Assembly (NCBI GenBank): GCA_964016885.1
Contig: OZ024754.1
Location: forward strand, 372,001-436,000
Direction of reading: 5' to 3'
Length of the DNA: 64,000 bases
From: Eledone cirrhosa
Lineage: Eukaryota
Position numbers and translations under genes: made by a program. Shown piece after piece: positions 26,157 to 52,495 of the stretch; within the stretch, counting starts at the first letter, position 1; each line of letters starts with the position of its first letter. The notes beneath the pieces are model-generated. The model was not told the DNA's origin. It made no database searches and saw nothing but the letters and a program-made list of their open reading frames with translations.

Positions 26157-27395
26157 CTACAGTTTTCTTCTAGTTTGTATTTCATCTAATTGTTTTATTC
26201 CAAACAATGCTTTTATTTCTTCCATGAAATTTTGATTCCTGCAGCTATAAATAATGGGATTTACACTTGAGTTGATGTAAAAACTATGTCGTGCAAGCCA
26301 ATAGAAAATGGCTGTGGCTACCGACATTCTGTCTTCGGATTTCAGTACTGCGTTTACCATCATGGCGATAATGCAAGGTAAATATGTCACTATAAAAACA
26401 ACAGTAATCATCATCATCGTTATAGTGGTACGGTGTATCCTATTCGCTTGTTCTCTAGCTCTTCTTTCGCTGTCCGTCTCTCGCAATTTAGTATTTTTCT
26501 TATTCATATTTGACACATTATCTGAAGAAACTCCAGATGACGTTTCTGTAATGGACAATTCAATTATCTCTATAGAAACATTCGAAGATAACTGACTGGA
26601 ATCAGTGGTTTCCGGTTTTTTAACAAATCGTTGTTCACCTTTCTCGAGAAGCACGACATCTGCAATGCTCTTTCGATTTTGTTGTGATTCAATTCTTTTT
26701 CTCTCTATGAATTTCAATTTTTGGAGAATTATGGTGTACAAGACAACGAGAAGAACGAACGCAAACACTGTTAAAAGAAAATAGAATGCAAAGAATCCAA
26801 GTTGATAATAATTCGGCTTCTTGGACTTTTTTGACGAGCAGGAATAGCTGTAGATACCAGGGTACTTGGTCGATTTCTTAATACTTCCATAGTAAAGAAG
26901 CACAATACTTCCCTGTATAGCACAGAAAAGAAAAATACAGACTACAATAATTTTAGCAATTTTCATAGTTATTTGTGGTTTCAGTGGATGACATACTTTT
27001 CTGTACCTATCTATAGCAATAGCGGCGAGGAAACCACAATTACAAAGTCCTGCAAATACAGATAAACACATATGGTTCTTGCACATTGCATCCCATGTTG
27101 TCATCAAGGGGTAAACATTTTGTACAATACGACCTGGTGTTATAATGGTACACATTATTAAATCAGCAGAAGCTAGCATGACAACAAACAGATAAGTTGG
27201 TGAGAGTTTCAAACGAAATCCGTAAACATAAATAGTTAAAATGTTACCAACGAAACCAAAGATCATTGTTAATATAACTAGAATGGTAGAAGGAATTCTT
27301 ATTAAAACTTGTTGCCTATTGAGTTCTTCAATAGTGACATTATATTCTGTACTGTTTACTGTTCCGTTCAGTATTGTTGTAGCAAACGACGTCAT
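26157..27395 (-). CDS. Class A (rhodopsin-like) GPCR, peptide-receptor-like orphan, intronless CDS; paralogue A (412 aa)
   Basis: Seven hydrophobic segments; GN (TM1), LASAD (TM2), Cys at the top of TM3 and in ECL2, AIDRY, NSSVNPIIY; N-terminal N-glycosylation sequons. Confidence 0.95.
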   Translation of the reverse strand: MTSFATTILNGTVNSTEYNVTIEELNRQQVLIRIPSTILVILTMIFGFVGNILTIYVYGFRLKLSPTYLFVVMLASADLIMCTIITPGRIVQNVYPLMTTWDAMCKNHMCLSVFAGLCNCGFLAAIAIDRYRKVCHPLKPQITMKIAKIIVVCIFLFCAIQGSIVLLYYGSIKKSTKYPGIYSYSCSSKKSKKPNYYQLGFFAFYFLLTVFAFVLLVVLYTIILQKLKFIERKRIESQQNRKSIADVVLLEKGEQRFVKKPETTDSSQLSSNVSIEIIELSITETSSGVSSDNVSNMNKKNTKLRETDSERRAREQANRIHRTTITMMMITVVFIVTYLPCIIAMMVNAVLKSEDRMSVATAIFYWLARHSFYINSSVNPIIYSCRNQNFMEEIKALFGIKQLDEIQTRRKL

Positions 27396-27829
27396 CCTTT
27401 TTTAGGTTTTTCACAATTTTTTAGGCTTTTCACAATTCGATCTGATTAGGTAAAAAAAAAAGAAAAAATAATGTAAAATATATTTCAAATACTATCCCCA
27501 CCATAACCATTCTCACAAGAACAACAGCAGCAGCAGCAGCAGCAGTAACAACAACAACAACAACGACAATAATAATAATTGTTTCTACTTTTGGCACAAG
27601 GCCATCAATTACCCAGTACATTACTGGTACTTTATTTTATCGACCCCGTAAGGATGAAAGGCAAAGTTAACCTCGGTGGGATTTGAACTCAGACCGCAAA
27701 GGGACGTAACTATGCTGGAAAGCATGGCGTCCGACCCTCTACCGATACTGCCAATCCACCACCGACGACAATAAAATAATAATAATATTAATAATAATAA
27801 TAATAATTGTTTCTACTTTATAATAATAA

Positions 27830-28545
27830 TAATAGAAATATAAAAGATAGTACTAATGGGAACTGCCCCTATACTAAGGAAGATTCTGTCAATATAAATA
27901 CATCACAAGTCTAAACACCTAAAGGTACATGTATGTGTGTATGTGTGTTCTTTCTTGAACATGGCGGACCTTGTTGTCTCTTGAGGTCAATGGTTGTGAC
28001 TTAGTGATAACTCGTATGAACATAAAGTAAGATAAATGAAAAAAAAAAATAATATAAGAGGAAAGGTGATTCACTGGCATTTATGCAAACTAAATAATTT
28101 ACCACATTCTGAGAAGTAGTGTGAGCATAAGCCAGAGTCGGTGATAGAAAACGGTCAAGTGAAGTTGCTGTGGGATTTCAGGATACAGACAGACAAGAAA
28201 TTAGAACACAATAGTCCTGACCTGGTGGCTTTTGACAAGGAAAAGAAGTCGTGCCTGATTGTAGATGTAACCTGTACCTTTGACACAAGAGTGCAAGAAA
28301 AGGAGGAGAAAATTAACCGATACCAGGATTTAAAGTGGGAGTTAAAAATGATTTGTGACTGTCATGAGATCAAGGTCGTCCCGATTGTCATAGGAGCACT
28401 AGGTACTATCTCAAAGAGTTTTCAAGGATGGTTAAAGAACATTAGTCCAGCCCCCTTTTTTGGAACTCTTCAAAAGCATGCTTGCTGGAAACAGCAAGAA
28501 CTCTCCGATACGTCCTGAATATCTGAGGCTGCAGGTAGAGGCTTG
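27830..28545 (+). mobile_element. R4/Dong-clade non-LTR retrotransposon 3' fragments (restriction-like endonuclease)
   Basis: IHWHLCK...VIENGQVKLLWDFRIQTDKKLEHNSPDLV...CLIVDV...KINRYQDLKWEL...VVPIVIGALGT; a second terminal piece IVLMGTAPILRKILS at ~27845-27897; adjoins a (TAA)n tract. Confidence 0.8.
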
Positions 28546-28549
28546 ATAT

Positions 28550-28850
28550 TCATTTGAACAAACTGCCAAGAGATCGCCGAACAAGTCTGGCGCGTATGCA
28601 TAATGTTCGTAGGGCAGACTATCCAAACCTGGCAATTTACCCCTCGTGCAGTCAGACATCGCTTCCCGTATTTCACCTGCTGTTATCGGCTTTTCGCAAT
28701 ACTGCGCTGCGAACCTTGAGAGCCGCGGAAGTCCGTCGAGGTATACACCGAAGTCAATATCCGATCCGATCTGCCGCTGCTCCCGAACAGTTCTGCTGAA
28801 AAGCCTCACACATCTGCTCGGGTTCGAGTAACATGCGCCCATTTTGGTGC
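28550..28850 (-). mobile_element. L1/Tx1-type LINE fragment
   Basis: CEKPITAGEIREAMSDCTRGKLPGLDSLPYEHY resembles the pre-RT K(S)PG.DGLP.EFY motif. Confidence 0.65.
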
Positions 28851-29239
28851 TTTATTTTATCGCTCTAACTTTGCTGTCCCAGTGCCTAAATTAGAAATCA
28901 ATATATCTCTGAAAGAAATGGAAAACTCTCTGACAAAAATCAAGATAACCAAAATTTAGTGATTGAAAATAGATGTTTAGGGAATTAGATGTAGAAAAAT
29001 ACATTAACAAAGCCCCAGGTCTTACACATGAACACCACGTGTAGAATATAGCACCACTTACAACAGGGCTGCAGGTCTTACACATATACATAAGTTGTGT
29101 ACATGTGTATACTTACACATGTACACAACTTGTTAGTGTGACAAAGTGGCCATATTCTGGAATATGCAAACTGATACAGACATGGGTGCTCTTGTCAAAG
29201 AAAAACCGGAAAAGAAATGTTTATTCATCAATGTATCAA

Positions 29240-29600
29240 TTACAAGAATCTGGCTAAGAGATTTAGGGATATTGTCAAGTCCAAGCTAGCTGTCGTAGAG
29301 TGCAGCCGATCAAATGTTTACAATGCAGCAAGTCTTTGAGAAATCGTGGGAGTATTGCCAAGAGGTGTATATTTGTTTCGCAAATCTCGAAAAGGCATAT
29401 GACCGCGTTCCACAGAAATTATTGTGGAAGGTTCTGTATGAGTATGAGATCGATGGACAGCTTCTTGTTGCCTTGAAATCTCTATACCAATGCCATTGTG
29501 TTTGTGTTTAGTTATATAGTTCTAAGCAAAAACTATTCAATGTGAGTGTCGGAATCCGACAATGGGGTGTACTGTCACCAGTCCTGTTCATAATTATTGC
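29240..29600 (+). mobile_element. RTE-type LINE reverse transcriptase fragment
   Basis: DQMFTMQQVFEKSWEY...CFANLEKAYDRVP..LLWKVL..Y...GIRQ..VLSPVLF. Confidence 0.8.
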
Positions 29601-30403
29601 GCAGGGTTGTTTAAATATGATAATAATTGTTTCTACTTTAAGCACAAGGCCAGCAATTTGGGGAGAGGGGAAAGTCAATTAAATCGACCTCAGTGCATTA
29701 CTGGTGCTTTATTTTATCAACCGCGTAAGGATGAAAGGCAAAGCTAACCTCGACCGGATTTGAACTCGGATCATAAAGGGCCGTAACTCAATGCCACAAA
29801 GCATGTTGTCCGACGCTCTACCGATACTGATAATCCACCACCCTTTAAATACGATAATTATAATAATAAAAAACAAACAAATATTACACTTACCGAAGCC
29901 AGTTGGAGATTCAGTCGTGGGAAGGTGGAATTAAAATGAAATCTTTGCAATAAGTCACAAATGTAACAAAAATATTCGTCTCCTTGCATAAAAACGTTCT
30001 GACCAACAGCCAAGAGATATAACAATAGGAATATTTGGAGATAAATATATTTTGTGTATCTTATTTGCCGAGACACTACAATAGGATGACATAAACTAAT
30101 TTCCTCGAAATACACTTGACTATACAATAGACGTGCGAAAGTGCGAAAGGCAGCTACTTAAAAAATGTTAATAGGAAAATTATTTGAAACATTAATTATA
30201 ACAGACCAGCCGGATAGCACGTGACTCTGGCATCAATTTCTATTGTCGAATTGTGTTAACTATATGAAATGACTGCTGAAGAGTAATTATACCAGTCCAA
30301 TCGTTGAAATATGATACTACTAGTAATTATGGGCAACGGGAAAGTCAATTAAATCGACTCCAGCATTTAACTGGCACGAGATATTATCGAGTCGAATTGA
30401 CTG

Positions 30404-31034
30404 AGTCGTTAGAACGTCAGATAAAATGGTAGTGTCATTAGAACGTCAGATAGAATGGTAGAGTCGTTAGAACGTCAGATAGAATGGTAGAGTCGTTAGA
30501 ACGTCAGATAGAATGGTAGAGTGGTTAGAACGTCAGATAGAATGGTAGTGTCATTAGAACGTCAGATAGAATGGTAGAGTGGTTAGAACGTCAGATAGAA
30601 TGGTAGAGTGGTTAGAACGTCAGATAAAATGGTAGTGTCATTAGAACGTCAGATAGAATGGTAGAGTGGTTAGAACGTCAGATAAAATGGTAGTGTCATT
30701 AGAACGTCAGATAGAATGGTAGTGTCATTAGAACGTCAGATAGAATGGTAGAGTGGTTAGAACGTCAGATAGAATGGTAGAGTGGTTAGAACGTCAGATA
30801 GAATGGTAGAGTGGTTAGAACGTCAGATAAAATGGTAGTGTCATTAGAACGTCAGATAGAATGGTAGAGTTGTTAGAACGTCAGATAGAATGGTAGAGTC
30901 GTTAGAACGTCTGATAGAATAGTAGAGTGGTTAGAACGTCTGATAGAATGGTAGAGTGGTGAGAACGTCAGATAGAATGCTTTGCGGTATTTGTTTCGGC
31001 CAGCTGCTTTCTGAGTTCAAATCCCGCCGAGGTC
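30404..31034 (+). repeat. 29-bp tandem array (~19-20 copies) forming the expanded head of a SINE
   Basis: TAGAACGTCAGATAGAATGGTAGAGTGGT units run straight into ATGCTTTGCGG...GAGTTCAAATCCCGCCGAGGTC (B-box). Confidence 0.9.
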
Positions 31035-31601
31035 AATCGTGTGTCAGTTAGATGCAGTTTATTCACGAGAGTTTCGAGCTGGCGAAGCTTGGACTTGAGG
31101 GTGAAAAAGATTTGTTCGGTAAGAATAGAATAGACAGATACGGCTTGACTGGAGCAAACTTGAAGCAAATGGTCACAGCGCAGACAGTTTCTCGTATCGA
31201 ACTTAACGATGAGATGCCTAGAATCAATGGACACCGGAACAGGTGGGCAGTTATTGATGAATTGGTTCCCTCACGTCAGCCAGCCACATCAACTTCGCCT
31301 CTCAACCAGTTCAGAAGTGACAAACCTATAAATAATGACGCCACCACTAAAAATTGTCAGGACCAGTTTACCATCACAATTCGAGCCTGTCGGCCCCGAC
31401 TGTAGTGACAGTGAGCGCTCAGACGTGATAACATTCTTCCCGTTTGAGGTGAGGCTAAATCTCTAATCTGGAACGACATGTGTTGCAGCATGTCGTAAGA
31501 AACTGGTATTATACCCAATTTATTCATCTATATATATATATATATATATTATAATGAAATGACAGGAGGCTGGATTTGTGTAAATCCTTGAAAGGTTTAT
31601 T

Positions 31602-31659
31602 ATACTATGATCATTTCCATGACCGGGTTCCGTATGAATCCGGTGATATCATCAGGTAT
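31602..31659 (-). ncRNA. Minimal type-I hammerhead ribozyme motif
   Basis: Minus: AUAC CUGAUGA UAUCACCGG[loop]CCGGUCAUG GAAA UGAUCA UA^GUAU, then AAUAAA; palindromic stem III AUGAUCAU. Confidence 0.65.
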
Positions 31660-32285
31660 TCGAAATATAATACGTGAATGTAATAGATAAAATCGAGGAC
31701 CCGAGGGCGACCGCTATTCTGCTCCTTCAACCTCAGCCGGTGGCCCTCGAGTGACGTGGCTAAAGTTTACAGTGTGCTACTACCGGTCAGATAAACGAAA
31801 ACAGAAAGGGATGGGGACATAAGTTAGCGTCAACTCATGCCACAAGATAAAAGAAAGAAAGAAAGGAAGGAGAGAGAAGAAGGGGGAAGAGAAGCCAGGG
31901 TTAATGTCAGCTATAAGAAGAAAGACAACTACTACCGGTCAGATATAGGCAAACAAAAGAGGTAAGGAAGATAAGTCTGCGGCAGGAAGACAGGGGGAGG
32001 AAAGAAGAGAAGGAAGAGAAGGGAGAAGTAGAAAAGTAAGGGTTGATGGCTACAAGAAGGAAGATAGAAAGAAAGAGGGAGAAAGGTCGATATTAATGTC
32101 AGGCCAGGAGATTTACACAAATCCAGCCTCCTGTCATTTCATTATAATATTTAACTCCGTAATAGCACCACCAACTACAAAAACAAAGACGGTTGAACTG
32201 CTTTACATTGAGTACTCTCTATATTATTACATTACGATTGACCATACGGAATAGACCAGCTCTATACAGTGGTGAACCTCAAACC

Positions 32286-32380
<95 letters not shown>

Positions 32381-32407
32381 GTATATATATATATATATAT
32401 ATATATA

Positions 32408-32464
<57 letters not shown>

Positions 32465-32632: not shown

Positions 32633-32671
32633 AATATGGTTTTATAAATATAGTTTCCATTTGTTAATATC

Positions 32672-33369: not shown

Positions 33370-34600
33370 CACCTCACTGACAATGTGTTCAAGCTATGTA
33401 CCTCACTGACAATCTGTTCAAGCTATATACCTCACTGACAATCTGTTCAAGCTATGTACCTCACTGACAATCTGTTCAAGCTATATACCTCCCTGACAAT
33501 CTGTTCAAGCTATATACCTCCCTGACAATCTGTTCAAGCTATGTACCTCACTGACAATCTGTTCAAGCTATATACCTCCCTGACAATCTGTTCAAGCTAT
33601 ATACCTCCCTGACAATCTGTTCAAGCTATATACCTCCCTGACAATCTGTTCAAGCTATATACCTCACTGACAATCTGTTCAAGCTATGTACCTCACTGAC
33701 AATCTGTTCAAGCTATATACCTCACTGACAATCTGTTCAAGCTATATACCTCACTGACAATCTGTTCAAGCTATATACCTCACTGACAATCTGTTCAAGC
33801 TATATACCTCCCTGACAATCTGTTCAAGCTATATACCTCCCTGACAATCTGTTCAAGCTATATACCTCCCTGACAATCTGTTCAAGCTATATACCTCCCT
33901 GACAATCTGTTCAAGCTATGTACCTCACTGACAATCTGTTCAAGCTATATACCTCACTGACAATCTGTTCAAGCTATATACCTCACTGACAATCTGTTCA
34001 AGCTATATACCTCACTGACAATCTGTTCAAGCTATATACCTCACTGACAATCTGTTCAAGCTATGTACCTCACTGACAATCTGTTCAAGCTATATACCTC
34101 CCTGACAATCTGTTCAAGCTATATACCTCCCTGACAATCTGTTCAAGCTATATACCTCCCTGACAATCTGTTCAAGCTATATACCTCACTGACAATCTGT
34201 TCAAGCTATGTACCTCACTGACAATCTGTTCAAGCTATATACCTCACTGACAATCTGTTCAAGCTATATACCTCACTGACAATCTGTTCAAGCTATATAC
34301 CTCACTGACAATCTGTTCAAGCTATGTACCTCACTGGCATTCAGTTCAAGCTATGTACCTCACTGACAATCTGTTCAAGCTATATACCTCCCTGACAATC
34401 TGTTCAAGCTATATACCTCCCTGACAATCTGTTCAAGCTATATACCTCACTGACAATCTGTTCAAGCTATATACCTCAGTGACAATCAGTTCAAGCTATG
34501 TACCTCACTGGCATTCAGTTCAAGCTATGTACCTCAGTGACAATCTGTTCAAGCTATATACCTCAGTGACAATCTGTTCAAGCTATGTACCTCACTGACA
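33370..34600. repeat. 29-bp tandem minisatellite (~42 copies)
   Basis: CCTC(A/C)CTGACAATCTGTTCAAGCTAT(A/G)TA unit. Confidence 0.97.
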
Positions 34601-35539
34601 TTCAATACCATTACATTAATATGCTGATATTCTCACATATGACATGTCAACAAACACTTGAATATTTGATTTCTGGAACCCAGTTGGCTAGGAAGCAATA
34701 ACATAGTAACGAGAACACCCCAATCTATCCCATGAGCAATGTTATAAAAATTGGTGCCCTTTAAACAAGTTTTTCATCTTATTTCACTTCTGCAATAAAA
34801 GTCGAATCTTATTTTTTTATATTTTTTTCTTTATCATGATATGTAAGAACTACCTGAACTTATTGTTTTATTCCAATAACCTCCCACTGATTTAAACAGT
34901 AGGATCAATCTAATCTTTTAAATAATGTTGCTTTGAAAATGGTGTTAAGTGATTTAAAGAAACCCGACTTCAATATCGTTTTCCAGTATTTAAACATATA
35001 TTATTTCAAAAAGATAGAAACATTTCAAAGAATCATTATTTCACTGCAGGATATTACGTTATACATTGCTACTTTGAAAATAGAGTAAAGTGATTTGACG
35101 AAACCTTACTTCAATACCGGACATACAATTTTTCCAGTATATAAGGATGCATTATTTCAAAGAGATGGAAACCACCTCTTTTTAAAACATTGCATGACCT
35201 CAGTAACATAGATCCACTAACACAACAAATATGGCAACCATCACCCATCTACATTGAAGATGCTAACCAATAGCCCAGTCCTCAAAAATGGGCATTACAC
35301 CCATGTTGTGGAACAGTACTCAATGTTCTCAATTACCCGCCTCACCCTCTATCGCCACAAGAACCTACCTGCAGTACATTCGCCACCATCAACAGACTGA
35401 AGAAAGGCCGTTTTTCATCTTCTCTCTTATGTCGGCCTCACACGTCAAGGCTCAAATACATTCACAACGTGGAGATATAGCAGCTGTCTCTTCTCCTGCG
35501 TAGCTGCAGCCGTCCACTGTACGCCCAGGCGAGACAGCG

Positions 35540-38550: not shown

Positions 38551-40180
38551 CATCATCATCATCATCATCATTTTACGTCCACTTTTCCCTGCTTGCAAGG
38601 GTGGGACGGGTCATATTCAGCACAGCATCTCTCCAATCGTCACGTTCCTTCGTCATCTCCTCCGTGAGCTTCAGCGATCTGAGTTCTACTCTCACCACCT
38701 CCGCCCATGATTTTCGTGGTCTTCCTCTACTGCGTCTTTCTTCTACTAGGATTTCTTGGCACTTCTTTACCCAGCAGTCATCCTCCATGCGTATCACATG
38801 TCCATACCATCTCAGTCTTCTCTCCCGCACACTACAGCTTATCCCTCTTATACACAGTTTCTCTCTCAACTCCTCCATGCTTGGTCGTTCACGCACATTG
38901 ACATTGCACATCCAACGGAGCATGCTTGCTTCATTTTTCTCCAGCCGTCGCATATTCTCCGCAGTTGCTGCCCATGTCTCACTACCATGCAACATCACGC
39001 ATCTCACACAGCCATCATATAACTGGCTTTTCGTTCGTAGGGAGAAACCCTTTGTCAACAGAGGAAGCAGCTCCCTAAACTTCTTCCAACCCGCCCTTGG
39101 AGCACCCTCCTCCCTTGCTAATCTGATCGCCTAGCTATCGGAAGTTATCAACCACCTCTTTAAATCCTACCTGCATTTGAAAAATGTGTCTATCACTGCG
39201 ACTTCTACTGTCAAATTTCCCTGTACATCGACTGCATATGTAGTTTTCCCTACCTGTTAGTTTGCCTGCTATCCCACTACATTTCTTGTGTACCCAAGAT
39301 CTGCATTGTATACATTCTATAGAATTTATGCCAACTCCTTTTCTACATATCGAACATGGCCATTTTCCTAATGGAATCAGAGTTTTGTCCTCTTTTCTAC
39401 TAATCAACACTTTAGTCTTAACTAGGTTCACTCTCAGTCCTCTTGATTCCAACTGCTGTTTCCATAGCCAGAATTTCTTCTCTACCTCCTCTACTGATTC
39501 TGCTATAAGTACCAGATCGTCAACATAGAGAAGTTCCCATGGGCAGCCAGTCTTGAACTCCTCTGTTATGGCTTGGAGAACTATAATAAATAATAGTGGG
39601 CTGAGGACCGAACTCTGATGAACTCTTACTTGTATCTGGAATTCCTCACTAAACTCCATCCCTACTCTCACTTTACTGACAGCACTTCTGTACGTAGCTT
39701 GTACTGTCCTCACAAGCCACTCCTCTACACCTAGTTTCCTTAGGAACCACCAGATGACAGATCGGGGTGTTCTATCAAAGGCCTTCTCTAGGTCAACAAA
39801 AGCTAAGTATAGTGGCTTATTTTTCTTTAAAAACCTCTCTTGTAGTTGTCTCACTAAGAAGAGAGCATCTGTTGCACTTTTCCCAAGCACAAAACCAAAC
39901 TGCATCTCATCTAATTTGACCCTTTCTCTAATTAGTTGCGCTAGTATTCTTTCTGTCACTTTCATAACCTGATCCATCAGTTTTATGCCCCTATAATTGC
40001 TCCTCTCCAGAGCATCTCCTTTACCTTTGGGTATGACTCTGCCATATATAACTTGATTGACTATGCATGCAACCAGTTTAGCTCCTACTTCTCCTGATGC
40101 CTTCAGCATCTCAGCAACTATCCCTGATGGTCCAGCGGCCTTACCATTTTTCATTTCCTTAATTGCCTCTTTGACCCTAT
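38551..40180 (-). mobile_element. RTE-clade LINE, 5'-truncated and decayed (RT, PHD-like Cys cluster, C-terminus, (GAT)n tail)
   Basis: KAAGPSG, NYRGIKL, QFGF, AFVDLEKAFD, Q.SVLSP, LLYVDDL, CSICRKGVG..SIEC..C..WVHKKC, LRWYGHV.R, RGRPRKSW; ORF broken near 39135. Confidence 0.92.
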
Positions 40181-40471
40181 AGTCTCAAACCGTTACTGAC
40201 TCAAACCGTTTTTTTTTTTCTTTTTTTTTTTCAATCCTCATCTCAGCGTTTCTTAAAACAACTTTATCGCACAAACATCCTGCGCTCTCTTCCAACACTA
40301 GATTTTTTTTTTTATTTGAATAGGGAAATTTAATAAATTTAATGAATATAACTAAAATAACTTTTATCATTACTGTTGGCTGGGAATATATAGATTTAGT
40401 TATAACTGTCTCAATTTTCTAATGTTTGTTTTCTGTTTTTAACTACTTCAGACTGGGCAGGAGCGGAACGG

Positions 40472-41656
40472 ATGATGTCGTTTGGTGATACAATGCAGAG
40501 CGGAACAAGCGCTACCCTTTATCATAATATCACTATTGATGAGTTGAACCGACATGAACGTTTATTACGACTCCCTTTTACCATATTAATTTCGTTAAGT
40601 ATGACTCTAGGCCTAATTGGTAATGCTCTAACTATTTACATTTACGGATTTCGTTTCAAACTCTCACCAACCTATTTCTTTGTCGTCTTGCTGGCGTGTA
40701 CTGATTTTTTACTGTGTTGCGTTGCAACTCCCAGTCGTATTTTCCTAAATATTTACCCTCTGACAATGACATGGGATGCAATGTGCAAGGCCAATTTATC
40801 TTTAACTATATTTATAGGATTTTCTGATTTTGGTCTCCTCGCCATTATTGCTGTAGATAGATACAAAAAAGTATGTATGCCGTTCGAACGTCAAATGACT
40901 ATGAAAGATGCTAAAATTATCGTAGTCACTATTTTTCTTGTCTCTGGTCTACAGGGAGTTAGTGTTTATATTTACTACGGCAGTGTTAAGAAATGGATCA
41001 AATATCCCGTTATCTATTCTTATACTTGCACGGTAAAGAGGTCAAAATTAATGGAGAATGTCCAAGTGGCATTCATCACTGTCTTTATAATCTCAGCGCT
41101 GGCTACGTTTATTATTCTCGTTCTTCTGTACATTGTAGTTCTTCGGGAGCTGAAATTAATGGAGCAAAGATATAAGAATACAAGTCTGGCCACTCTATGT
41201 TTTCCGGTTACAACTACAGTTGAAGAGGATAATCCGATAACTAGTTGTCCGTCTTCATCCACGATTGAGCCACGCGCAATTGACGTGCCCACTGTAGAAA
41301 TATCTAGATTCTCTGTAGAAAACAATAGAAGTAGGCAAAAGAGAAGCAGTCTGAATAAATTGTATGAGTTGAGCAGTAAAAGACGAGCTAGACAGAAAGC
41401 GAATAGGATACGATATACCACTATGACGATGATGATGATTAGCGTAGTGTTTATACTCACTTATTTCCCCTTCAGTTACGCATTACTAATGGATGCAATG
41501 ATTATAAATAAAAGAGAGCTTTCGAAATTACAAAGCTTTTTTTATTGGCTCGCACGACATAGTGTTTACCTGAGCTCTTGTTCAAATCCCATTGTTTACA
41601 GCTGCAGGAATAAAATGTTTTTACAAGAGGCGAAACGATTGTTTGGGGAAAAATAG
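40472..41656 (+). CDS. Class A GPCR, same family, intronless CDS; paralogue B (394 aa), opposite orientation
   Basis: GN, LACTD, WDAMC, AVDRY, FYWLARHS, SNPIVY; clearly homologous to paralogues A and C but uniformly diverged. Confidence 0.95.
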   Translation: MMSFGDTMQSGTSATLYHNITIDELNRHERLLRLPFTILISLSMTLGLIGNALTIYIYGFRFKLSPTYFFVVLLACTDFLLCCVATPSRIFLNIYPLTMTWDAMCKANLSLTIFIGFSDFGLLAIIAVDRYKKVCMPFERQMTMKDAKIIVVTIFLVSGLQGVSVYIYYGSVKKWIKYPVIYSYTCTVKRSKLMENVQVAFITVFIISALATFIILVLLYIVVLRELKLMEQRYKNTSLATLCFPVTTTVEEDNPITSCPSSSTIEPRAIDVPTVEISRFSVENNRSRQKRSSLNKLYELSSKRRARQKANRIRYTTMTMMMISVVFILTYFPFSYALLMDAMIINKRELSKLQSFFYWLARHSVYLSSCSNPIVYSCRNKMFLQEAKRLFGEK

Positions 41657-41706: not shown

Positions 41707-44445
41707 GAAATACGAACAACAAGAAAACTTTAGGCTGTCGTAAGAGAAGAGAAATACGAACTACAAGAAAACTTTAGGCTGTCGTAAGAGAAGAGAAATA
41801 CGAACTAGAAGAAAACTTTAGGCTGTCGTAAGAGAAGAGAAATACGAACTACAAGAAAACTTTAGGCTGTCGTAAGAGAAGAGAAATACGAACTAGAAGA
41901 AAACTTTAGGCTGTCGTAAGAGAAGAAAAATACGAACTACAAGAAAACTTTAGGCTGTCGTAAGAGAAGAGAAATACAAACTACAAGAAAACTTTAAGCT
42001 GTCGTAAGAGAAGAGAAATACGAACTACAAGAAAACTTTAGGCTGTCGTAAGAGAAGAGAAATACGAACTACAAGAAAACTTTAGGCTGTCGTAAGAGAA
42101 GAGAAATACGAACTACAAGAAAACTTTAGGCTGTCGTAAGAGAAGAGAAATACGAACTACAAGAAAACTTTAGGCTGTCGTAAGAGAAGAGAAATACGAA
42201 CTACAAGAAAACTTTAGGCTGTCGTAAGAGAAGAGAAATACGAACTACAAGAAAACTTTAGGCTGTCGTAAGAGAAGAGAAATACGAACTACAAGAACAC
42301 TTTAGGCTGTCGTAAGAGAAGAAAAATACGAACTACAAGAAAACTTTAGGCTGTCGTAAGAGAAGAGAAATACGAACTACAAGAAAACTTTAGGCTGTCG
42401 TAAGAGAAGAGAAATACGAACTACAAGAAAACTTTAGGCTGTCGTAAGAGAAGAGAAATACGAACTAGAGGAAAACTTTAGGCTGTCGTAAGAGAAGAGA
42501 AATACGAACTACAAGAAAACTTTAGGCTGTCGTAAGAGAAGAGAAATACGAACTACAAGAAAACTTTAGGCTGTCGTAAGAGAAGAAAAATACGAACTAC
42601 AAGAAAACTTTAGGCTGTCGTAAGAGAAGAGAAAAACGAACTACAAGAACACTTTAGGCTGTCGTAACAGAGATATACAAACTATAAGAAAACTTTAGGC
42701 TGTCGTAACAGAGAAATACGAACTAGAAGAAAACTTTAGGCTGTCGTAACAGAAGAGAAATACGAACTACAAGAACACTTTAGGCTGTCGTAACAGAGAT
42801 ATACAAACTATAAGAAAACTTTAGGCTGTCGTAACAGAGAAATACGAACTAGATGAAAACTTTAGGCTGTCGTAACAGAAGAGAAATACGAACTAGAAGA
42901 AAACTTTAGGCTGTCGTAACAGAGAAATACGAACTACAAGAAAACTTTAGGCTGTCGTAACAGAGAAATACGAACTACAAGAAAACTTTAGGCTGTCGTA
43001 AGAGAAGAGAAATACGAACTAGAAGCAAACTTTAGGCTGTCGTAAGAGAAGAAAAATACGAACTACAAGAAAACTTTAGGCTGTCGCAACAGAGAAGAAC
43101 TAGAAGAAAACGTTAGGCTGTCGTAACAGAGAAGAACTAGAAGAAAACTTTAGGCTGTCGTAAGAGAAGAGAAATACGAACTACAAGAAAACTTTAGGCT
43201 GTCGTAACAGAGAAGAACTAGAAGAAAACTTTAGTTTGTCGTAACAGAGAAATACGAACTAGAAGAAAACTTTAGGCTGTCGTAACAGAAGAGAAATACG
43301 AACTACAAGAAAACTTTAGGCTGTCGTAACAGAAGAGAAATAAGAACTAGAAGAAAACTTTAGGCTGTCGTAACAGAGAAATACGAACTAGAAGAAAACT
43401 TTAGGCTGTCGTAACAGAGAAATATGAACTAGAAGAAAACTTTAGGCTGTCGTAAGAGAAGAGAAATACGAACTACAAGAAAACTTTAGGCTGTCGTAAC
43501 AGAAGAACTAGATGAAAACTTTAGGCTGTCGTAACAGAGAAGAACTAGAAGAAAACTTTAGGCTGTCGTAACAGAAGAAAAATAAGAACTAGAAGAAAAC
43601 TTTAGGCTGTCGTAACAGAGAAATACGAACTAGAAGAAAACTTTAGGCTGTCGTAACAGAAGAGAAATACGAACTACAAGAAAACTTTAGGCTGTCGTAA
43701 CAGAGAAGAACTACAAGAAAAATTTAGGCTGTCGTAACAGAGAAATACGAACTAGAAGAACACTTTAGGCTGTCGTAACAGAAAAGAACTACAAGAATAC
43801 TTTAGGCTGTCGTAACAGCGAAATACGAACTACAAGAAAACTTTAGGCTGTCGTAACAGAGAAGAACTAGAAGAAAACTTTAGGCTGTCGTAACAGCGAA
43901 ATACGAACTACAAGAAAACTTTAGGCTGTCGTAACAGAGAAGAACTAGAAGAAAACTTTAGGCTGTCGTAACAAGAAAAATAAGAACTAGAAGAAAACTT
44001 TAGGCTGTCGTAACAGAGAAATACGAGCTAGAAGAAAACTTTAGGCTGTCGTAACAGAAGAGAAATACGAACTACAAGAAAACTTTAGGCTGTCGTAACA
44101 GAGAAGAACTACAAGAAAACTTTAGGCTGTCGTAACAGAAGAAAAATAAGAACTAGAAGAAAACTTTAGGCAGTCGTAACAGAGAAATACGAACTAGAAG
44201 AAAACTTTAGGCTGTCGTAACAGAGAAATACGAACTAGAAGAAAACTTTAGGCTGTCGTAACAGAAGAGAAATACGAACTACAAGAAAACTTTAGGCTGC
44301 CGTAACAGAGAAATATGAACTAGAAGAAAACTTTAGGCTGTCGTAACAGAGAAATATGAACTAGAAGAAAACTTTAGGCTGTCGTAACAGAGAAATATGA
44401 TCTAGAAGAAAACTTTAGGCTGTCGTAAGAGAAGAGAAATACGAA
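41707..44445. repeat. ~44-bp tandem minisatellite (~60-65 copies) starting ~50 bp after the GPCR B stop
   Basis: GAAATACGAACTACAAGAAAACTTTAGGCTGTCGTAAGAGAAGA; units shorten and vary toward the right. Confidence 0.97.
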
Positions 44446-45830: not shown

Positions 45831-46267
45831 TTTGTGAATGTATCTGTTGATTTTTGGCATATAGTTGAATAGTTTAAGAGAAATTTGAGGATAATTGTCA
45901 GATATGCACTCAGTATTTTGAATTTGTCTACAGAATTCTCTAAACCTTTGTCACTTAGTAGAACCTAAAGAATTTAGCTTTTAAAGAATCTCCCTTTCCT
46001 TTAAATCTATCTACCATGACTGACCCCCACTGATCTTATAGACACCTGTTAGCTTAAGAGAAACTTAATAATTAGGAGTGGCATGCCACCCTGAACCTGT
46101 TTATAGAATTCTGTCTGCCTTTGTTACTCTAAAAATAAAAATAAACTATAGCTTTGTAGAATTAGCTTTTAATGAATTCCCTTTTCTATCAACCAATGAC
46201 CTACACCCATCCCACTCCCCACCCTCTCCTTCACTTGTATAAATACCATACTTATTTTTTGATACCC

Positions 46268-46318
46268 AGATTCCTGATGATTTCTAAAGAATGAAACAGT
46301 TCTAGTCCTGTAGAATCT
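46268..46318 (+). ncRNA. Type-I hammerhead ribozyme motif with monomer-competent stem III
   Basis: AGAUUC CUGAUGA U UUC UAAA GAA U GAAA CAG UUCUAGUC CUG UA^GAAUCU; 6-bp stem I; stem II weak (U.U closing). Confidence 0.6.
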
Positions 46319-46400
46319 CATCTATATTAAAACTTTTATACTCTGCAATGTATTGAGTACCTTACTTACTGTGGTTACCTCCGATTCAACCCGGAATAAC

Positions 46401-46537
<137 letters not shown>

Positions 46538-47086
46538 AATACATATATAAATATACATATATATATATAAATATACATATATATACATATATATATACAT
46601 ATATATATATATACATATACATACATATATACATATACAGATATAGATATATATGTATATATATATATATATGTATATGTATATATATATATGTATATGT
46701 ATATATATATATGTATATGTAAAATATTAAACAAATAATGAATAAAACAATGAAACAGTTCCTTATATTAAACAAAAAAAGTTCATTATTTAACGATCGT
46801 TTCTAGGATATATATGTGTTAGAATTGGCATGCATATTCAACAGATCTATGTACAAAATTATACAAAATTATACAATTAAGTCAAATATGTAAAATTTGG
46901 CTTCGTGTATTATAAATTATAGATATACTGCTACTATATATATTTCGGTGACAGCCGAATTGGAATCATATGATTCCAGTTCCTCAGAGAAATAACAACA
47001 CAACCAGGAGCTGGACATATCGATGTATTAACAGAGTAAAACACACTTCAACAACATGTGAACCTGTCTTTCCCACACCAATTCGG

Positions 47087-47141
47087 ACTGCCTGAAGAGG
47101 TCACAGCCAATGATGGCTGCCACCGAAATATATATAGCAGT
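47087..47141 (+). ncRNA. Minimal type-I hammerhead ribozyme motif
   Basis: ACUGC CUGAAGA GGU CA CAGCCA AUGA UGGCUG CC ACC GAAA UAUAUA UA^GCAGU; G-C closing pair; palindromic stem III. Confidence 0.75.
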
Positions 47142-47151
47142 ATATCTATAA

Positions 47152-48027
47152 TCTATATATATAAAACTGTGGTTGTCTGTCTGTCTATCGATTTTTGGCA
47201 CACATCTCCTCTTAGAATCTCTCACGGAATTGCACCGAAATTGCTATACTTGTACATTGAGCCCTAGCGAAGACATCGGAAAAAAAAATTTCAAATTGAC
47301 CCACCCTATCTGACGAAATCGAATATAATGTATCGATTTTTGAGCGTAAGTTATCAGTTATTTCCCTTTGTTCTGTTTACATTGAGCGTCTTACGTAAAA
47401 AATTACGCTGGCTTTAACAGTTGTCGAGCCAGCAAAATATTGACCTGCAAAATTCATCAGTTCGAACACTAAGCTTCCGTTTTGCTTCATTTCCATTTAA
47501 AAGCATTTTAAAACAATATTTTTACTTGAAAACAAGTCTATTTAAAGACTACGTAAAACAAGCAAATATTTCGCCGTTAGGCGTGCAGACAGACAGTCGT
47601 ACAGACAGACAGTCGTGCAGAGAGGTGATATACGCGTGCAGACAGACAGTCGTGCAGAGAGGTGATATAGGCGTGCAGACAGACAGTCGTGCAGAGAGGT
47701 GATATAGGCGTGCAGACAGACATAACTGATAATTTGGTTACGCTAATGTTTTTATCTGCGTTGCAGTGTTTACATTTTCGATCTTTGTTAATAAATAACC
47801 AGTGCAGTTTTTATCCCCAGCATCCTCTTTTGTTATAACATTCGGGTTATCGTTATGTTTTCTTAACTTCATAAGGCATATTGTTGTTTGAGGGAATATT
47901 AATCAAAAACACCACATGCAAGTCTGCACAGTAGACACTACAGTTTTTAAGCCAAAAAAGAAACTTAACATTGTAACTTTAACACAGCTACTGAGCGACC
48001 CCGAGCAACGCCGGGCTTTACTGCTAG
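47152..48027 (+). mobile_element. Non-autonomous Helitron
   Basis: 5' A|TCTATATATATAAAAC..(TGTC)n; short internal tandem repeat at ~47578-47720; 3' hairpin CCCGAGCAACGCCGGG and CTAG|T. Confidence 0.8.
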
Positions 48028-48286
48028 TTTATAATAAACGAAGCAAATTTTACATATTTGACTTAATTATTTTATATATTAACCCTTTAGGAAAAATTAA
48101 CAAACTACCAAAACACACACCTATTTAGATATGTGGTACAATTTATGTACATGTTATGTTTATCACATATCGAACTTTTCTGATCATTTTAGAGTGCAAA
48201 GAGCTAAACTGATCACTACAACTAAATTGACAAAATTTGTTTCCCCCATTCAGAAATGCTTCCACCGCCCCTGAATAATAAGAAAG

Positions 48287-48324
<38 letters not shown>

Positions 48325-48400
48325 TTTTTGAGGGCAACTAACTTGTCTGTTGAAGTGAGAATATTTTCGTTTTTACCTTGCATACTACTGTTTGTTTTAT

Positions 48401-48600
48401 TTAGTACATCCTCTCCTTGAAGGTCGTGGATGTTGCATCGATGTAGGTGTGCTTAGCTTTTTGTATGTTAACCACACGTTTATAGACAACGCCATTCACT
48501 AGGCAATTCTTCTGTAGAGCGTATTGTGTGCCAACGCGGCAGTTGCAAGTTCTGGTTATATGCTGCTCACTATACGCTAGTCCCTGCGTAAATAATGGGC
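48401..48600 (-). mobile_element. Penelope-like element GIY-YIG endonuclease fragment
   Basis: TCNCR......NCLVNGVVYKRVV......TYIDAT.TTFKER, a decayed CNCR..C...CL..VVY...YIG.T..FKER motif. Confidence 0.7.
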
Positions 48601-49137
48601 AGCATATAACCAGAACTTGCAACATTATAAATAACATTCCTCGTTACCAATAATAATAATTGTTTCTACTTTTGGCACAAGACCAGCAATTATCCCAGTG
48701 TATTACTGGTACTTTACTTTATCGACCCCGTAAGGATGAAAGGCAATGTTAACCTCGACGGGATTTGAACTCAGATCATAATTGTTTCTACGTTAGGCAC
48801 AAGGCCAGCAATTACCCAGTGCATTACTGGTACTTTATTTTATCGACCCCGTAAGGATGAAAGGCAAAGTTAACCTTGGCGGGATTTGAACTCAGAATGG
48901 CAAGGGCCGTAACTCTATACGTCAACGCATGGCGTCCGACCCTCTACCAATACTGCCAATCCACCGCCCCTCAGATCATAATGGGCCGTAACTCTTTGCT
49001 GCAAAGCATGGTCCAACCCTCTACCGATACTGCCAATCCACCATACTCTGCTCCGCGTGAGCATCGAGTACTCAAACGGCATACCACCTACGGACCCATT
49101 TATTGTAACCTCACAACAACTATATATATATATATAT

Positions 49138-49210
<73 letters not shown>

Positions 49211-49331
49211 CATACATACATATATATGTGTGAATATATATATATATATATATAGTTCAAAAGGACAAACAAACGCAGGAGTCAATAGTAGATAGTTATA
49301 TTAGGTTCACGCTTGGTGAGAGTGGAGGAGG

Positions 49332-49367
49332 TTTCGACGTTTCGGACTTAAGTCCTTCATCAGGAAA
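49332..49367 (-). ncRNA. Ultra-minimal (36-nt) type-I hammerhead ribozyme motif
   Basis: Minus: UUUC CUGAUGA A GGAC UUAA GUCC GAAA CG UC^GAAA; palindromic ACGU stem III; extra A after A9. Confidence 0.65.
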
Positions 49368-49421
49368 GTTGAGAGAAACTCCGAGAGGGAGTAAGGAGGG
49401 ACGTTAACAAGAACATGATGT

Positions 49422-49543
<122 letters not shown>

Positions 49544-49574
49544 ATCCACAATATCCGACATGTATGGAGTAGAC

Positions 49575-49736
49575 CAGCGGTCGCCAACCTTTCGGACCTC
49601 GCAGACCATTAAATTCATAATTATAAATCCCACGGACCACTAATATGAATTTTTAAAAAAAGCTACATTAAAATAGATTCAAATTTTTCTGCGAACTACC
49701 AAACTTTTGTCTCGAACCCCCGGTTGGTGACCTCTG
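49575..49736. mobile_element. hAT (Charlie-like) MITE
   Basis: TIRs CAGCGGTCGCCAACC / GGTTGGTGACCTCTG; near 8-bp TSD GAGTAGAC / GAGTAGTT. Confidence 0.75.
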
Positions 49737-49999
49737 GAGTAGTTTATCTCGTATGTCCTTGCGCCTGAAGAGAAAGGCCAGTTTTAGAACCGCTACTCTA
49801 CTATACAGCGGTGGCCATAACTGGAACGGGAAACCTAAGGTCCTGCATGCATGTTATCTGTATGAACTTTAATATAAACACGTGAGCAGGTAAATAAAAA
49901 CAAGGAAGACATTTTTAAATATAAGAAGTAGAATTTATTTATTTAGGGGATCAACGTTCTGTGATTGACTAAATGGAACTTACTCCAAGAGGAAGATTA

Positions 50000-50305
50000 C
50001 TTGGGCAGATTTATGGAGGTTGGAACATTTCCGATTCTATTTTCTGTTACGGTCGGTTTAAGATACGCTACCAACCCCAACAAATGTGTACAAGTGGCGC
50101 ATGAGGGTTGAATTTTGCAGGATCTGTAAAAAAAGAGGCACTGTGGCTCATTTTATCAGGGAGGCAGCAGAACTGGCCTCTTGTTGGCTTTGAAGCAGGA
50201 GAGAGGAGATAAGCTGGAAGTCAGAAGTCGAAGATGGACAGTAATTTGGCCACCATTGCTGACCCACGAGCGAGAAGGTAATATGGTTGAGGGTTGAGAC
50301 ACCTA
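50000..50305 (+). mobile_element. Probable HERO/R2-superfamily LINE 3' end
   Basis: FIREAAELASCWL*SRREEISWK at ~50152-50220 resembles the EAAE.AS.WLW.RR..W C-terminal motif (recalled, not searched). Confidence 0.5.
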
Positions 50306-50860
50306 ATGGACTGTTGGACACCGATGACATCAACACCTCCTGGTCAAGACTATGGTCTGTTGGACACCGATGACATCAACACCTCCTGGTCAAGACTATG
50401 GACTGTTGAACACCGATGACATCAACACCTCCTGGTCAAGACTATGGACTGTTGGACACCGATGACATCAACACCTCCTGGTCAAGACTATAGTCTGTTG
50501 GACACCGATGACATCAACACCTCCTGGTCAAGACTATGGTCTGTTGGACACCGATGACATCAACACCTCCTGGTCAAGACTATAGTCTGTTGGACACCGA
50601 TGACATCAACACCTCCTGGTCAAGACTATGGTCTGTTGGACACCGATGACATCAACACATCCTGGTCAAGACTATAGTCTGTTGGACACCGATGACATCA
50701 ACACCTCCTGGTCAAGACTATGGTCTGTTGGACACCGATGACATCAACACCTCCTGGTCAAGACTATGGTCTGTTGGACACCGATGACATCAACACCTCC
50801 TGGTCAAGACTATGGTCTGTTGGACACCGATGACATCAACACCTGCTGGTCAAGACTATG
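50305..50860. repeat. 46-bp tandem minisatellite (~12 copies)
   Basis: TATGGTCTGTTGGACACCGATGACATCAACACCTCCTGGTCAAGAC unit. Confidence 0.97.
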
Positions 50861-51238
50861 TCCCACACGGGTAAAAATATAAGGGAAATAATTTGAAAAT
50901 GCAACTGGAGTCTTTTATTAATATTATTTACTTTACCGGTTTCACAGTTCTTATGATTATCAAACGTAAAATTCAAATGGAGGGTTTGTGATTCTGTTGT
51001 GATGTCTCTCATCATATATATGATAGAGGTATATAAGATGGCATATATGATCAGTATATGTATAATAAACATGCAGAAGTTTTATTATGTCTTAAGGTGT
51101 GAACATCCTTCTGTTTTATACTCTTTTGAAAAATTATTTCCTGACAAAACATTTTTTTCCTTTAGAATATATAAAATATATATATTGTTAGGTTTCACTT
51201 TGGTTTGTATTGCAGTTCAATTTCCTTTGTTTTTTCTC

Positions 51239-52495
51239 CTATTTCTTTATTCTAAACAATTTTTTCACCTCATCAATAAAATTTTGATTCCTGCAGCCAT
51301 AAATAATGGGATTTACACTTGAGTTAACGTAAAAACTATGTCGTGCAAGCCAATAAAAAATGGCTGTGGCTACCGACATTCTGTCTTCGGATTTCAGTAC
51401 TGCGTTTACCATCATGGCTGCCACGCTGGGTATGTAGGTGACTATAAAGATGAATGTAATCATCATCATTGTTATGGTGGTCCGTTGTACTCGAGTGACT
51501 TGTTCTCTTGCTCGCTTCATACTGTTTGTTTCCCTTTTCACGGTTGCCATTGAAGCCTTTTTCTTTATTTGTTTTTTCGGCTGAACTACGAAATTCTCGT
51601 TAGAATACACGCCCGATGATGATGAAGTCGTGTTTGACATATTCACCGTTGTAGAGATGTCCACAAATTCAATTTCTTGATTGGAAGTGGAACTGTCGGG
51701 AGGTTTTCCAACGGTCACTGTGGCTTCAGTTGTTTCCCCTTCATTTTTGGATTTAAAACTAACAGTATTACTTACTGATATTAGAGCTGGTTGACTTTTT
51801 TTGACGACGCTACGCATACGATTTAAAACAATACTGTACAATATAGTCAACAGAAAAATGGTAAAAATGGTAATCAGTAAATAGAATGCAAAGAATCCAA
51901 GTTGGTAATAATTCGGCTTCTTGGACTTTTTTGACGAGCAGGAATAGCTGTAGATACCAGGGTACTTGGTCGATTTCTTAATACTTCCATAGTAAAGAAA
52001 CACAATACTTCCCTGTATAGCACAGAAAAGAAAAATACAGACTACAATAATTTTAGCAATTTTCATAGTTATTTGTGGTTTCAGTGGATGACATACTTTT
52101 CTGTACCTATCTATAGCAATAGCGGCGAGGAAAGCACAATTACAAAGTCCTGTAAATACAGATAAACACATATGGTTCTTGCACAGTGCATCCCATGTTG
52201 TTATCAAGGGGTAAACATTTTGTACAATACGACCTGGTGTTATAATGGTACACATTATTAAATCAGCAGAAGCTAGCATGACAACAAACAGATAAGTTGG
52301 TGAGAGTTTCAAACGAAATCCGTAAACATAAATAGTTAAAATGTTACCAACGAAACCAAAGATCATTGTTAATATAACTAGAATGGTAGAAGGAATTCTT
52401 ATTAAAACTTGTTGCCTATTGAGTTCTTCAATAGTGACATTATATTCTGTACTGTTTACTGTTCCGTTCAGTATTGTTGTAGCAAACGACGTCAT
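51239..52495 (-). CDS. Class A GPCR, same family, intronless CDS; paralogue C (418 aa)
   Basis: Same motifs as paralogue A; the first ~205 aa differ from A at 5 positions. Confidence 0.95.
   Translation of the reverse strand: MTSFATTILNGTVNSTEYNVTIEELNRQQVLIRIPSTILVILTMIFGFVGNILTIYVYGFRLKLSPTYLFVVMLASADLIMCTIITPGRIVQNVYPLITTWDALCKNHMCLSVFTGLCNCAFLAAIAIDRYRKVCHPLKPQITMKIAKIIVVCIFLFCAIQGSIVFLYYGSIKKSTKYPGIYSYSCSSKKSKKPNYYQLGFFAFYLLITIFTIFLLTILYSIVLNRMRSVVKKSQPALISVSNTVSFKSKNEGETTEATVTVGKPPDSSTSNQEIEFVDISTTVNMSNTTSSSSGVYSNENFVVQPKKQIKKKASMATVKRETNSMKRAREQVTRVQRTTITMMMITFIFIVTYIPSVAAMMVNAVLKSEDRMSVATAIFYWLARHSFYVNSSVNPIIYGCRNQNFIDEVKKLFRIKK

Follow-up and report, generated by a model that had tools for sequence, protein, structure and literature searches.

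A spared TM5-ICL3-TM6 segment between two tracts of gene conversion in a pair of orphan class A receptors from Eledone cirrhosa

Receptor genes and their near-identical tracts

In this study, we focus on a 64,000-nucleotide stretch of the Eledone cirrhosa genome (GenBank assembly GCA_964016885.1, contig OZ024754.1, positions 372,001 to 436,000 of the forward strand), hereafter the window, and on three G protein-coupled receptor (GPCR) genes within it, A, B and C (Table 1), of which A and C are nearly identical over two tracts of coding DNA that flank a strongly diverged segment. The exchange of DNA between A and C by interlocus gene conversion is well supported. The preliminary description of the window had spoken of a GPCR pair; A and C are indeed a real pair, but a third paralogue, B, on the opposite strand between them, had been overlooked.

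All three are class A (rhodopsin-like) GPCRs of one subfamily. They match the Pfam profile 7tm_1 (E 1e-37 for A, more exactly 1.1e-37; 1e-34 for C; 3e-29 for B), and the family shows seven transmembrane helices (TM1-TM7) followed by helix 8 (H8), the DRY and NPxxY motifs, and C3.25 together with a cysteine in the second extracellular loop (ECL2). Residue numbering was anchored on N51, D78, R130, Y220, P340 and P380; TM5, which lacks a proline, was numbered from Y5.58, in agreement with an alignment to the kappa-opioid receptor. A search of the species' own genome with residues 1-205 of A returned 63 matches, only A, B and C being close; the next-closest match shows 38% identity and lies on a different contig. 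Among named proteins, its closest relatives come from Octopus and Argonauta, and the homologues split into a C-type and an A-type by the segment between the two tracts (the middle segment). C is 75-80% identical to the C-type copies of these genera, its orthologues by middle segment being XP_029642552.1, CAI9729863.1 and XP_014784725.1 in Octopus and GAB1609667.1 in Argonauta; the O. sinensis relatives lie on one 77.5-Mb contig.

Database names within the family are contradictory, with alpha-2 adrenergic, tyramine and dopamine receptor among the automatic Octopus names. Aminergic receptors carry Asp at position 3.32; A, C and every C-type receptor carry Ser there, which argues against an aminergic identity. 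The A/C receptor is an orphan class A GPCR: no deorphanised relative was found among the homologues retrieved (21 hits at E<=1e-30; 46 at E<=1e-45), and when solved structures were searched by sequence and by fold, the matches were no more than generic receptors for peptides and amines (E 1e-15 or weaker; structural identity 14-19%), the best Foldseek matches of the structural model being peptide receptors at 14-19% identity.

The preliminary description had counted 6 differences between 26781-27396 and 51881-52496 and 4 between 26228-26366 and 51280-51418, and both counts proved exact in ungapped comparison; the true edges are 1-2 nt wider, giving tracts of 618 and 140 nt. Identity ends 1 nt upstream of the ATG, as had been stated, and the 300-nt flanks are 52% alike, which is to say unrelated; the C-terminal tails are likewise unrelated or diverged. 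Silent divergence between A and C (dS) is 0.007 in tract 1 and 0.074 in tract 2, a tenfold difference between the tracts, and the proportion of differing silent sites (pS) reaches saturation in the middle segment, at 0.74 in inner TM5, 0.81 in the third intracellular loop (ICL3) and 0.82 in inner TM6. Contrary to the earlier statement that this middle part is barely alignable, inner TM5 and inner TM6 align without gaps, 17-19 of 24 nt being identical in each block of inner TM6 beyond 24 nt from the edge. Among 290 silent codons, the longest run identical between A and C comprises 184, a length reached in none of 20,000 permutations. The pattern is that of partial concerted evolution, with silent sites homogenised within the tracts and saturated outside them and with unrelated flanks. 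It is rare in this genome: a survey of 378 pairs among 28 intact open reading frames (ORFs), drawn from the 30 top-ranking of those 63 matches, found such a step profile in only 1 of the 43 paralogue pairs with at least 50% identity.

The residual differences in tract 1 (5 non-synonymous, 1 silent) show no departure from neutrality (p 0.61), and no pattern of GC-biased conversion was seen, the GC content of third codon positions being 0.30 in tract 1, 0.33-0.39 in the middle segments and 0.43 in tract 2. Two of the differences in tract 2 alter lineage-diagnostic residues, namely 7.44 I/V (26276/51328) and 7.54 S/G (26246/51298).

Table 1. Features of the receptor cluster; positions are counted from the first letter of the window.
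Feature	Position	Strand	Description	Basis
Gene A	26157..27395	-	single-exon ORF, 412 residues, class A GPCR with A-type TM5-ICL3-TM6 segment	ORF and 7tm_1
Gene B	40472..41656	+	single-exon ORF, 394 residues, inverted third paralogue between A and C	
Gene C	51239..52495	-	single-exon ORF, 418 residues, conserved C-type receptor	
Tract 1 in A	26779..27396	-	ATG-1 to codon 206: N-terminus, TM1-TM4, ICL1, ICL2, ECL2, TM5 up to 5.43	
Tract 1 in C	51879..52496	-	618 nt; differs from A at 6 sites, of which 5 are non-synonymous and 1 is silent	
Tract 2 in A	26227..26366	-	6.54, ECL3, TM7, start of H8	
Tract 2 in C	51279..51418	-	140 nt; 4 differences from A	
Spared segment of A	26367..26778	-	TM5 from 5.44, ICL3, TM6 up to 6.53	
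Spared segment of C	51419..51878	-	39% amino acid identity to A; 69-70% to Octopus C orthologues	
Polypyrimidine tract and AG acceptor-like site	52524..52545	-	28 nt upstream of the C ATG; contig of run X4 leaves the genome here	
Acceptor-like site	27442..27465	-	46 nt upstream of the A ATG; unrelated to the site of C	sequence only

Reality and history of the exchange

The near-identity was compared with contigs built without mapping from short-read runs, of which X2 and X3 come from one sample and X4 from a second sample of the same study, either being possibly related to the source of the assembly. A 499-nt contig in X2, X3 and X4 spans the middle segment of A with 0 differences and ends 30 nt inside each tract, and a 547-nt contig in X2 and X4 spans that of C in the same way; these two runs also contain tract 2 of C joined to its own tail, and X2 connects the tract-1 letters of A to A's own upstream flank. 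X1 contigs cover the gene patchily, and the restriction-site-associated (RAD) run X6 gave no cover of the gene body. Four of the tract-1 letters of C are present in X3 and X4 contigs and the letter at 52186 is absent, which may reflect heterozygosity or an error. No hidden divergent tract 1 was found among the X2 and X4 contigs listed at 80% likeness, only short pieces of 81-83% at 52250-52338. Because the contigs branch exactly at the tract edges and reproduce both sets of junctions, the near-identity is not a polishing collapse between paralogues, the outcome by which the preliminary description would have had conversion fail.

The same description expected converted tracts to group by species and ICL3 by locus, and the segment trees bear this out for tract 1 and the middle segment. 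In the tree of tract 1, A and C are sisters (support 99/99), and trees that keep the A-types or the C-types together are rejected by the approximately unbiased (AU) test (p-AU 0.0019 and 0.0012). For the middle segment, an A+C clade is rejected (p-AU 7e-6; 4e-7 on the gap-free helices alone), and the helices reject a tree that joins A to all C-types (0.007), whereas the entire middle segment does not (0.06). Against the A- and C-types of O. sinensis, 10 informative sites in tract 1 group by species and 0 by locus, and 11 sites in the spared helices group by locus and 1 by species. B, with its long branch, was excluded from the AU tests, the partial O. sinensis sequence P0017 from the tract-1 trees, and the mis-joined P0007 and P0019 were not used; P0007 (O. 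vulgaris CAI9729858.1) is a 638-residue model that appears to fuse parts of two cluster members, probably through a gene-prediction error.

A second species (organism B, run X5, from a different study than X2-X4) was compared by aligning its contigs to the window. Its C-type middle contig (520 nt) has 50 differences, and a second middle contig (484 nt) bears the same end words and is read as A-type by its letters and length. Each reaches from a 30-mer whose last letter is 51418 to one whose first letter is 51879, so that the inner edges coincide with those of the window to the base. Tract 1 is a single 620-nt contig (51879-52498), which ends 2 nt from the 5' edge in the window and has 37 differences from C of the window, compared with only 6 between A and C. 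The depths of these contigs (18.8, 41.5 and 55.1) agree with the two types having collapsed into one contig in tract 1, depth not being copy number and contigs being able to merge slightly different copies. The tract 2 contig differs from both A and C at 8 listed sites, and at 52046 and 51347 A and C of the window have in common a silent letter unlike that of organism B and of paralogue B. The paralogues of the window, 1% apart, are thus nearer to each other than the orthologues of the two species, 6% apart, and the tract edges would be older than the species split; exchange after that split is supported, and recurrent conversion is likely. For organism B, the common edges and the homogenisation are deduced from the way its contigs branch rather than from sequences of the individual copies. 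Its A-type middle contig (41.5) has about twice the depth of the C-type one (18.8), a hint of two A-type copies as far as depth, unreliable as copy number, can give one.

Both types are present in Octopus, and the duplication therefore predates the split from that genus. In O. bimaculoides and O. sinensis, every segment sorts the copies by locus (22/0, 22/0 and 7/0 sites), so conversion has not been recent in Octopus; in the window the grouping is not by locus throughout, which would have told against conversion. Among the homologues, no octopod A/C pairs were found beyond those of three Octopus species and, with a C-type only, Argonauta. Gene B belongs to the A lineage by its middle segment and has undergone no recent conversion (dS about 0.55 to tract 1). 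In the tract 1 region its dS is 0.54-0.57 from A and from C, and in the spared helices 1.3-1.4 from C and 0.6-0.95 from A (0.61 for the spared TM6 of A); as tract 1 is as near to B as the spared TM6 of A is, and the spared helices of C are far, exchange was underway before B split off. On 60 spared helix columns, the C-types group with six relatives (100/99.6), apart from the A-types, but the AU test does not reject one clade of all octopod sequences (p-AU 0.082), which leaves an origin before the split from these relatives no more than a possibility. Octopus A-types with a C-like pocket may owe it to ancient conversion (p-AU 0.22). The reads, silent sites, segment trees and second species all support the claim, made from the first look at the locus, of interlocus gene conversion between old paralogues.

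The spared hairpin and its possible causes

Tract 1 ends at 5.43 and tract 2 begins at 6.54. In an AlphaFold model of C (mean predicted local distance difference test, pLDDT, 68; predicted template modelling score, pTM, 0.66), which has seven long helices and H8, TM5 covers residues 196-234 and TM6 308-366, with low confidence at 236-316, and by these extents about 70 helical, gap-free residues are spared together with the loop. The spared unit is thus the hairpin of inner TM5, ICL3 and inner TM6, 410-460 nt long, whose helices and loop shift position upon receptor activation. In class A structures, 5.43 faces 6.55, and 5.44 and 5.47 face 6.52; by analogy, the two edges of the hairpin would lie at one membrane depth.

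The preliminary description held that the ligand-facing half was homogenised and the G-protein-facing half divergent. That division is too clean: besides all extracellular loops, the tracts take in ICL1, ICL2 (with P34.50-L34.51), the DRY end of TM3 and the TM7-H8 hinge. On a list of 29 pocket positions, A and C are identical at 26, and the three differences (5.46 L/I, 6.51 C/S, 6.52 I/V) are all in the spared segment. Of 24 G-protein contact positions (34.50-34.51 and 5.65-5.69 taken from PMC9173784), 19 are identical, the differences being 5.61, 5.65, 5.68, 5.69 and 7.54. Ten non-loop columns separate all 11 A-types from all 5 C-types, nine in the spared helices and one (7.44) in tract 2; residues 5.61, 5.69, 6.20 and 6.42 are fixed by lineage, and 6.51 and 7.54 nearly so, with S at 7.54 in 10 of 11 A-types and G in all five C-types. 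The cytoplasmic tip of TM5 is hydrophobic in all C-types (V5.61, M5.65, V/I5.68, V/I5.69), and 5.69 is charged or polar in all A-types. According to PMC9173784, residues 5.65, 5.68 and 5.69, the cytoplasmic ends of TM5 and TM6, and ICL3 bear on G-protein selectivity.

The pocket of C is unchanged at 29/29 positions in Argonauta and in P0012, a relative 69% identical in tract 1, and A differs from it at 3/29; from this constancy, A and C likely bind the same ligand. Four other Octopus A-types show pocket differences at 8-11 positions. Between B and C 19/29 positions differ, and B, being inverted, unconverted and strongly altered in its pocket, is a candidate for a new ligand.

We propose that A and C are old tandem paralogues that have exchanged DNA repeatedly by gene conversion in two tracts, and that selection likely removes any exchange entering the hairpin. 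The two receptors, predicted to have one ligand, would then differ in signalling strength, coupling or shut-off, the likeliest difference being at the cytoplasmic tip of TM5, against the background of a common ICL2 (P-L at 34.50-34.51). Selection on the hairpin for a signalling difference is the reading we favour, at about even odds, and the view that the edges are maintained by selection, and not by lost homology, is inferred from the following. The edges lie 25-30 codons (TM5) and about 37 codons (TM6) from the first indel, inside the modelled helix; divergence in TM6 peaks at the edge, where 13 of 24 nt are identical, and is lower further in (19, 19 and 17 of 24); a converted island of 140 nt lies between diverged blocks; within this island, 7.54 S/G and 7.44 I/V persist between runs of identical silent codons (9/9 and 5/5, compared with 11/30 in the spared helices); and the profile is rare among paralogue pairs. 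A divergence peak under ongoing conversion is described as a signature of selection in PMC3924837.

As to what would be selected, opposite outputs appear less likely than a primary coupling common to both receptors and a divergence in secondary coupling, efficacy or desensitisation. Two G-protein outputs are possible, and the switch of G-protein class that forms a subset of the selective proposal looks improbable. Similarly, the fuller picture of GPCR paired receptors, with one conserved cephalopod ligand and two G-protein outputs, in which conversion would synchronise the pocket and selection fence off the hairpin (borders 5.43/5.44 and 6.53/6.54) as a co-adapted switch module, is one we consider unlikely as a whole.

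Several observations weigh against selection for distinct signalling. The G-protein contacts are identical at 19 of 24 positions and ICL2 is common to A and C; three of the five contact differences are conservative (I/V, L/M, I/V); and ICL2 alone can give GALR1 Gq coupling, as stated in PMC9173784. The argument from 7.54 was noticed post hoc and concerns a single site. In Octopus, conversion is not needed to keep the pair; the homogenisation in organism B rests on collapsed contigs, which can merge copies a few percent apart; and no A+C grouping emerges from the protein tree of tract 2, built on 46 residues. Furthermore, stable edges are expected without selection, as conversion halts where substitutions or indels disrupt pairing (PMC3924837).

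This last expectation underlies a neutral homology barrier, in which the fast, indel-rich ICL3 escaped conversion first, divergence spread from it into TM5 and TM6, and the edges became self-perpetuating, A and C differing mainly in promoter and expression site or serving dosage. The theory in PMC3924837, the unchanged state of most G-protein contacts, the unrelated upstream DNA of A and C and the highly variable length of ICL3 among relatives all speak for it, whereas the distance of the edges from indels, the sparing of 6.33-6.41, the best-conserved stretch of TM6 and free of amino acid differences, with conversion of the isolated 140-nt island beyond it, and the retention of single lineage-diagnostic residues inside that island do not fit it well; we regard such a barrier as a serious possibility of clearly less than even probability. 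If the barrier were neutral, the locus would be an unusually clean case of a known process.

A tuning of ligand recognition, as in opsins, was also considered, in which selection guards the pocket-floor residues 5.46, 6.51 and 6.52, A and C have different affinities or favour different ligands, and the loop between these residues is carried along. It would account for the position of all three of the 29 pocket differences within 3 codons of an edge, for the presence of L5.46 and C6.51 both in A of the window and in Octopus XP_014771901.1/XP_029643035.1, and for a local divergence peak at 6.46-6.53. The pocket changes are conservative, however, S6.51 occurs in another A-type (O. bimaculoides XP_052827840.1, O. 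sinensis XP_029643071.1), and 7.54 and 5.69 are left unexplained, so that this tuning seems quite doubtful.

A single recent event, either A as a young copy of C with its middle from an A-type donor or one conversion that overwrote A, would explain why tract 1 of A resembles the C-types of Octopus (89%) more than it does the A-types of that genus (80-83%); it is very unlikely in view of the unrelated or diverged flanks and C-tails, the tenfold difference in dS between the tracts, the same edges around 6% different tract sequence in organism B, and the dS values to B that place exchange before the split of B. An error of assembly or polishing by which the sequence of one paralogue replaced that of its partner, which near-identity limited to the tracts and a large, repeat-rich genome might suggest, has next to no probability, as mapping-free contigs from two samples give both junction sets with 0 differences and those of X2 and X4 listed at 80% likeness hold no hidden divergent tract 1.

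If selection holds the edges, the pair would constitute a natural experiment in GPCR chimeras, marking a stretch that is not swappable between receptors alike elsewhere and naming residues 5.69, 6.20, 6.51 and 7.54 as candidates for coupling or efficacy. The constancy of the C pocket across distant cephalopod-type relatives makes this receptor a good target for deorphanisation. In addition, whole-gene trees and short-read assemblies misplace or collapse partly converted genes of this kind.

Relation to known systems and further observations

Conversion between tandem GPCRs, selection against conversion and paired receptors maintained by conversion are all already published subjects. CD300A/C and CEACAM pairs are reportedly paired receptors kept alike by gene conversion. 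The same is described for the paired immune receptors Siglec-11 and Siglec-16 (PMC5701461), which A and C would resemble in the repeated, lineage-wise conversion of the ligand-binding part of neighbouring paralogues with a distinct signalling part. The Siglec receptors, however, are single-pass proteins with ligand binding and signalling on separate exons, and their common ligand and opposite signalling were shown by experiment, whereas in A and C the two functions are interleaved in one exon of a seven-transmembrane protein and conversion falls in two tracts. If selection holds the edges of the hairpin, the paired-receptor idea would extend from immune immunoglobulin-type to seven-transmembrane receptors. 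Recurrent conversion in independent lineages between tandem class A GPCR paralogues, to which A and C would be a parallel, is a feature of mammalian CCR2/CCR5 and CCR1/CCR3 (PMC2880985, PMC8877049) and of CXCR1/CXCR2 (cited in PMC2684142); the available parts of these sources describe mainly transmembrane tracts, variably with an extracellular loop, and no fixed spared TM5-ICL3-TM6 unit with common edges.

Selection against conversion has been reported for the human LW/MW opsins (PMC3924837) and the R/S copies of Leptodactylus ATP1A1 (10.1101/2020.08.04.234435). These cases have in common with A and C a divergence peak within converted paralogues and residues fixed by lineage across species, and, as here, about 24 kb separates the two opsin genes; the protected sites there have been identified and tested (spectral tuning, toxin resistance) and conversion extends to non-coding DNA, whereas here conversion stays within coding DNA and selection would protect a cytoplasm-facing hairpin of 410-460 nt.

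Tandem-clustered orphan class A GPCRs also form groups 1 and 2 of the cephalopod class A expansions, described as mollusc-restricted and neuropeptide-receptor-like; the available part of that source (Ritschard et al. 2019, PMC6408891) mentions gene conversion once in passing and holds no segment analysis, nor does that of PMC11886862 on cephalopod GPCR expansions. A search of Creative-Commons papers in PMC and of bioRxiv found nothing on conversion that spares TM5-ICL3-TM6 or on the octopod A/C cluster.

Upstream of tract 1, run X4, which holds 88 million contig letters compared with about 1,400 million for X1-X3 and covers the middle segments of A and C, contains an 840-nt tract-1 contig that leaves C at 52525, on the AG of the acceptor-like site, with 220 letters unplaced. 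We infer that this contig resembles a spliced transcript, X4 not being recorded as RNA. A cDNA template for tract 1 was considered and set aside, because identity stops at the ATG and does not reach either acceptor-like site, 28 nt (C) and 46 nt (A) further upstream. A SINE-like repeat (SINE, short interspersed nuclear element) of 150-200 nt lies directly downstream of A and upstream of A and C, with copies at 25496-25665, 25984-26141, 27572-27763, 48651-48969, 52563-52754, 57655-58002 and 62466-63037.

Among the relatives, P0015 and P0016 are 369-residue forms that lack about 53 ICL3 residues of P0013 and P0054 and are 92-95% identical to them in the tract-1 region, which indicates independent remodelling of ICL3 in the receptor family. 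Elsewhere in the genome, L015 and L018 (G000:C24) are near-identical GPCR paralogues with 22 non-synonymous and 0 silent codon differences (binomial p 0.004 with the silent share set at 0.22), and L009-L014, L017, L019-L023, L026 and L027 (G000:C2, 147.8-148.1 Mb) belong to a large tandem cluster of related GPCRs, each with a single exon, and pairwise differences between them are mostly non-synonymous. Those among L009, L011 and L013 are concentrated in ECL2, outer TM5 and ECL3, the reverse of the A/C pattern.

Other parts of the window contain an intronless ORF of 407 residues (20439-21662, minus strand), possibly a retrocopy, with an HD domain (PF01966, E 7.9e-11) and motifs that we take to resemble a SAMHD1-type dNTPase without the SAM domain. 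Long minisatellite arrays, several with spurious long ORFs, occupy 100-1500, 6028-7407, 7510-11065, 30403-30979, 33371-34604, 41707-44445, 53325-55102 and 60804-61907. Broken fragments at 38573-40184 (minus strand), 28120-28851 and 23716-24447 are, judging from motifs in their translations, presumably of reverse-transcriptase or LINE (long interspersed nuclear element)-like origin.

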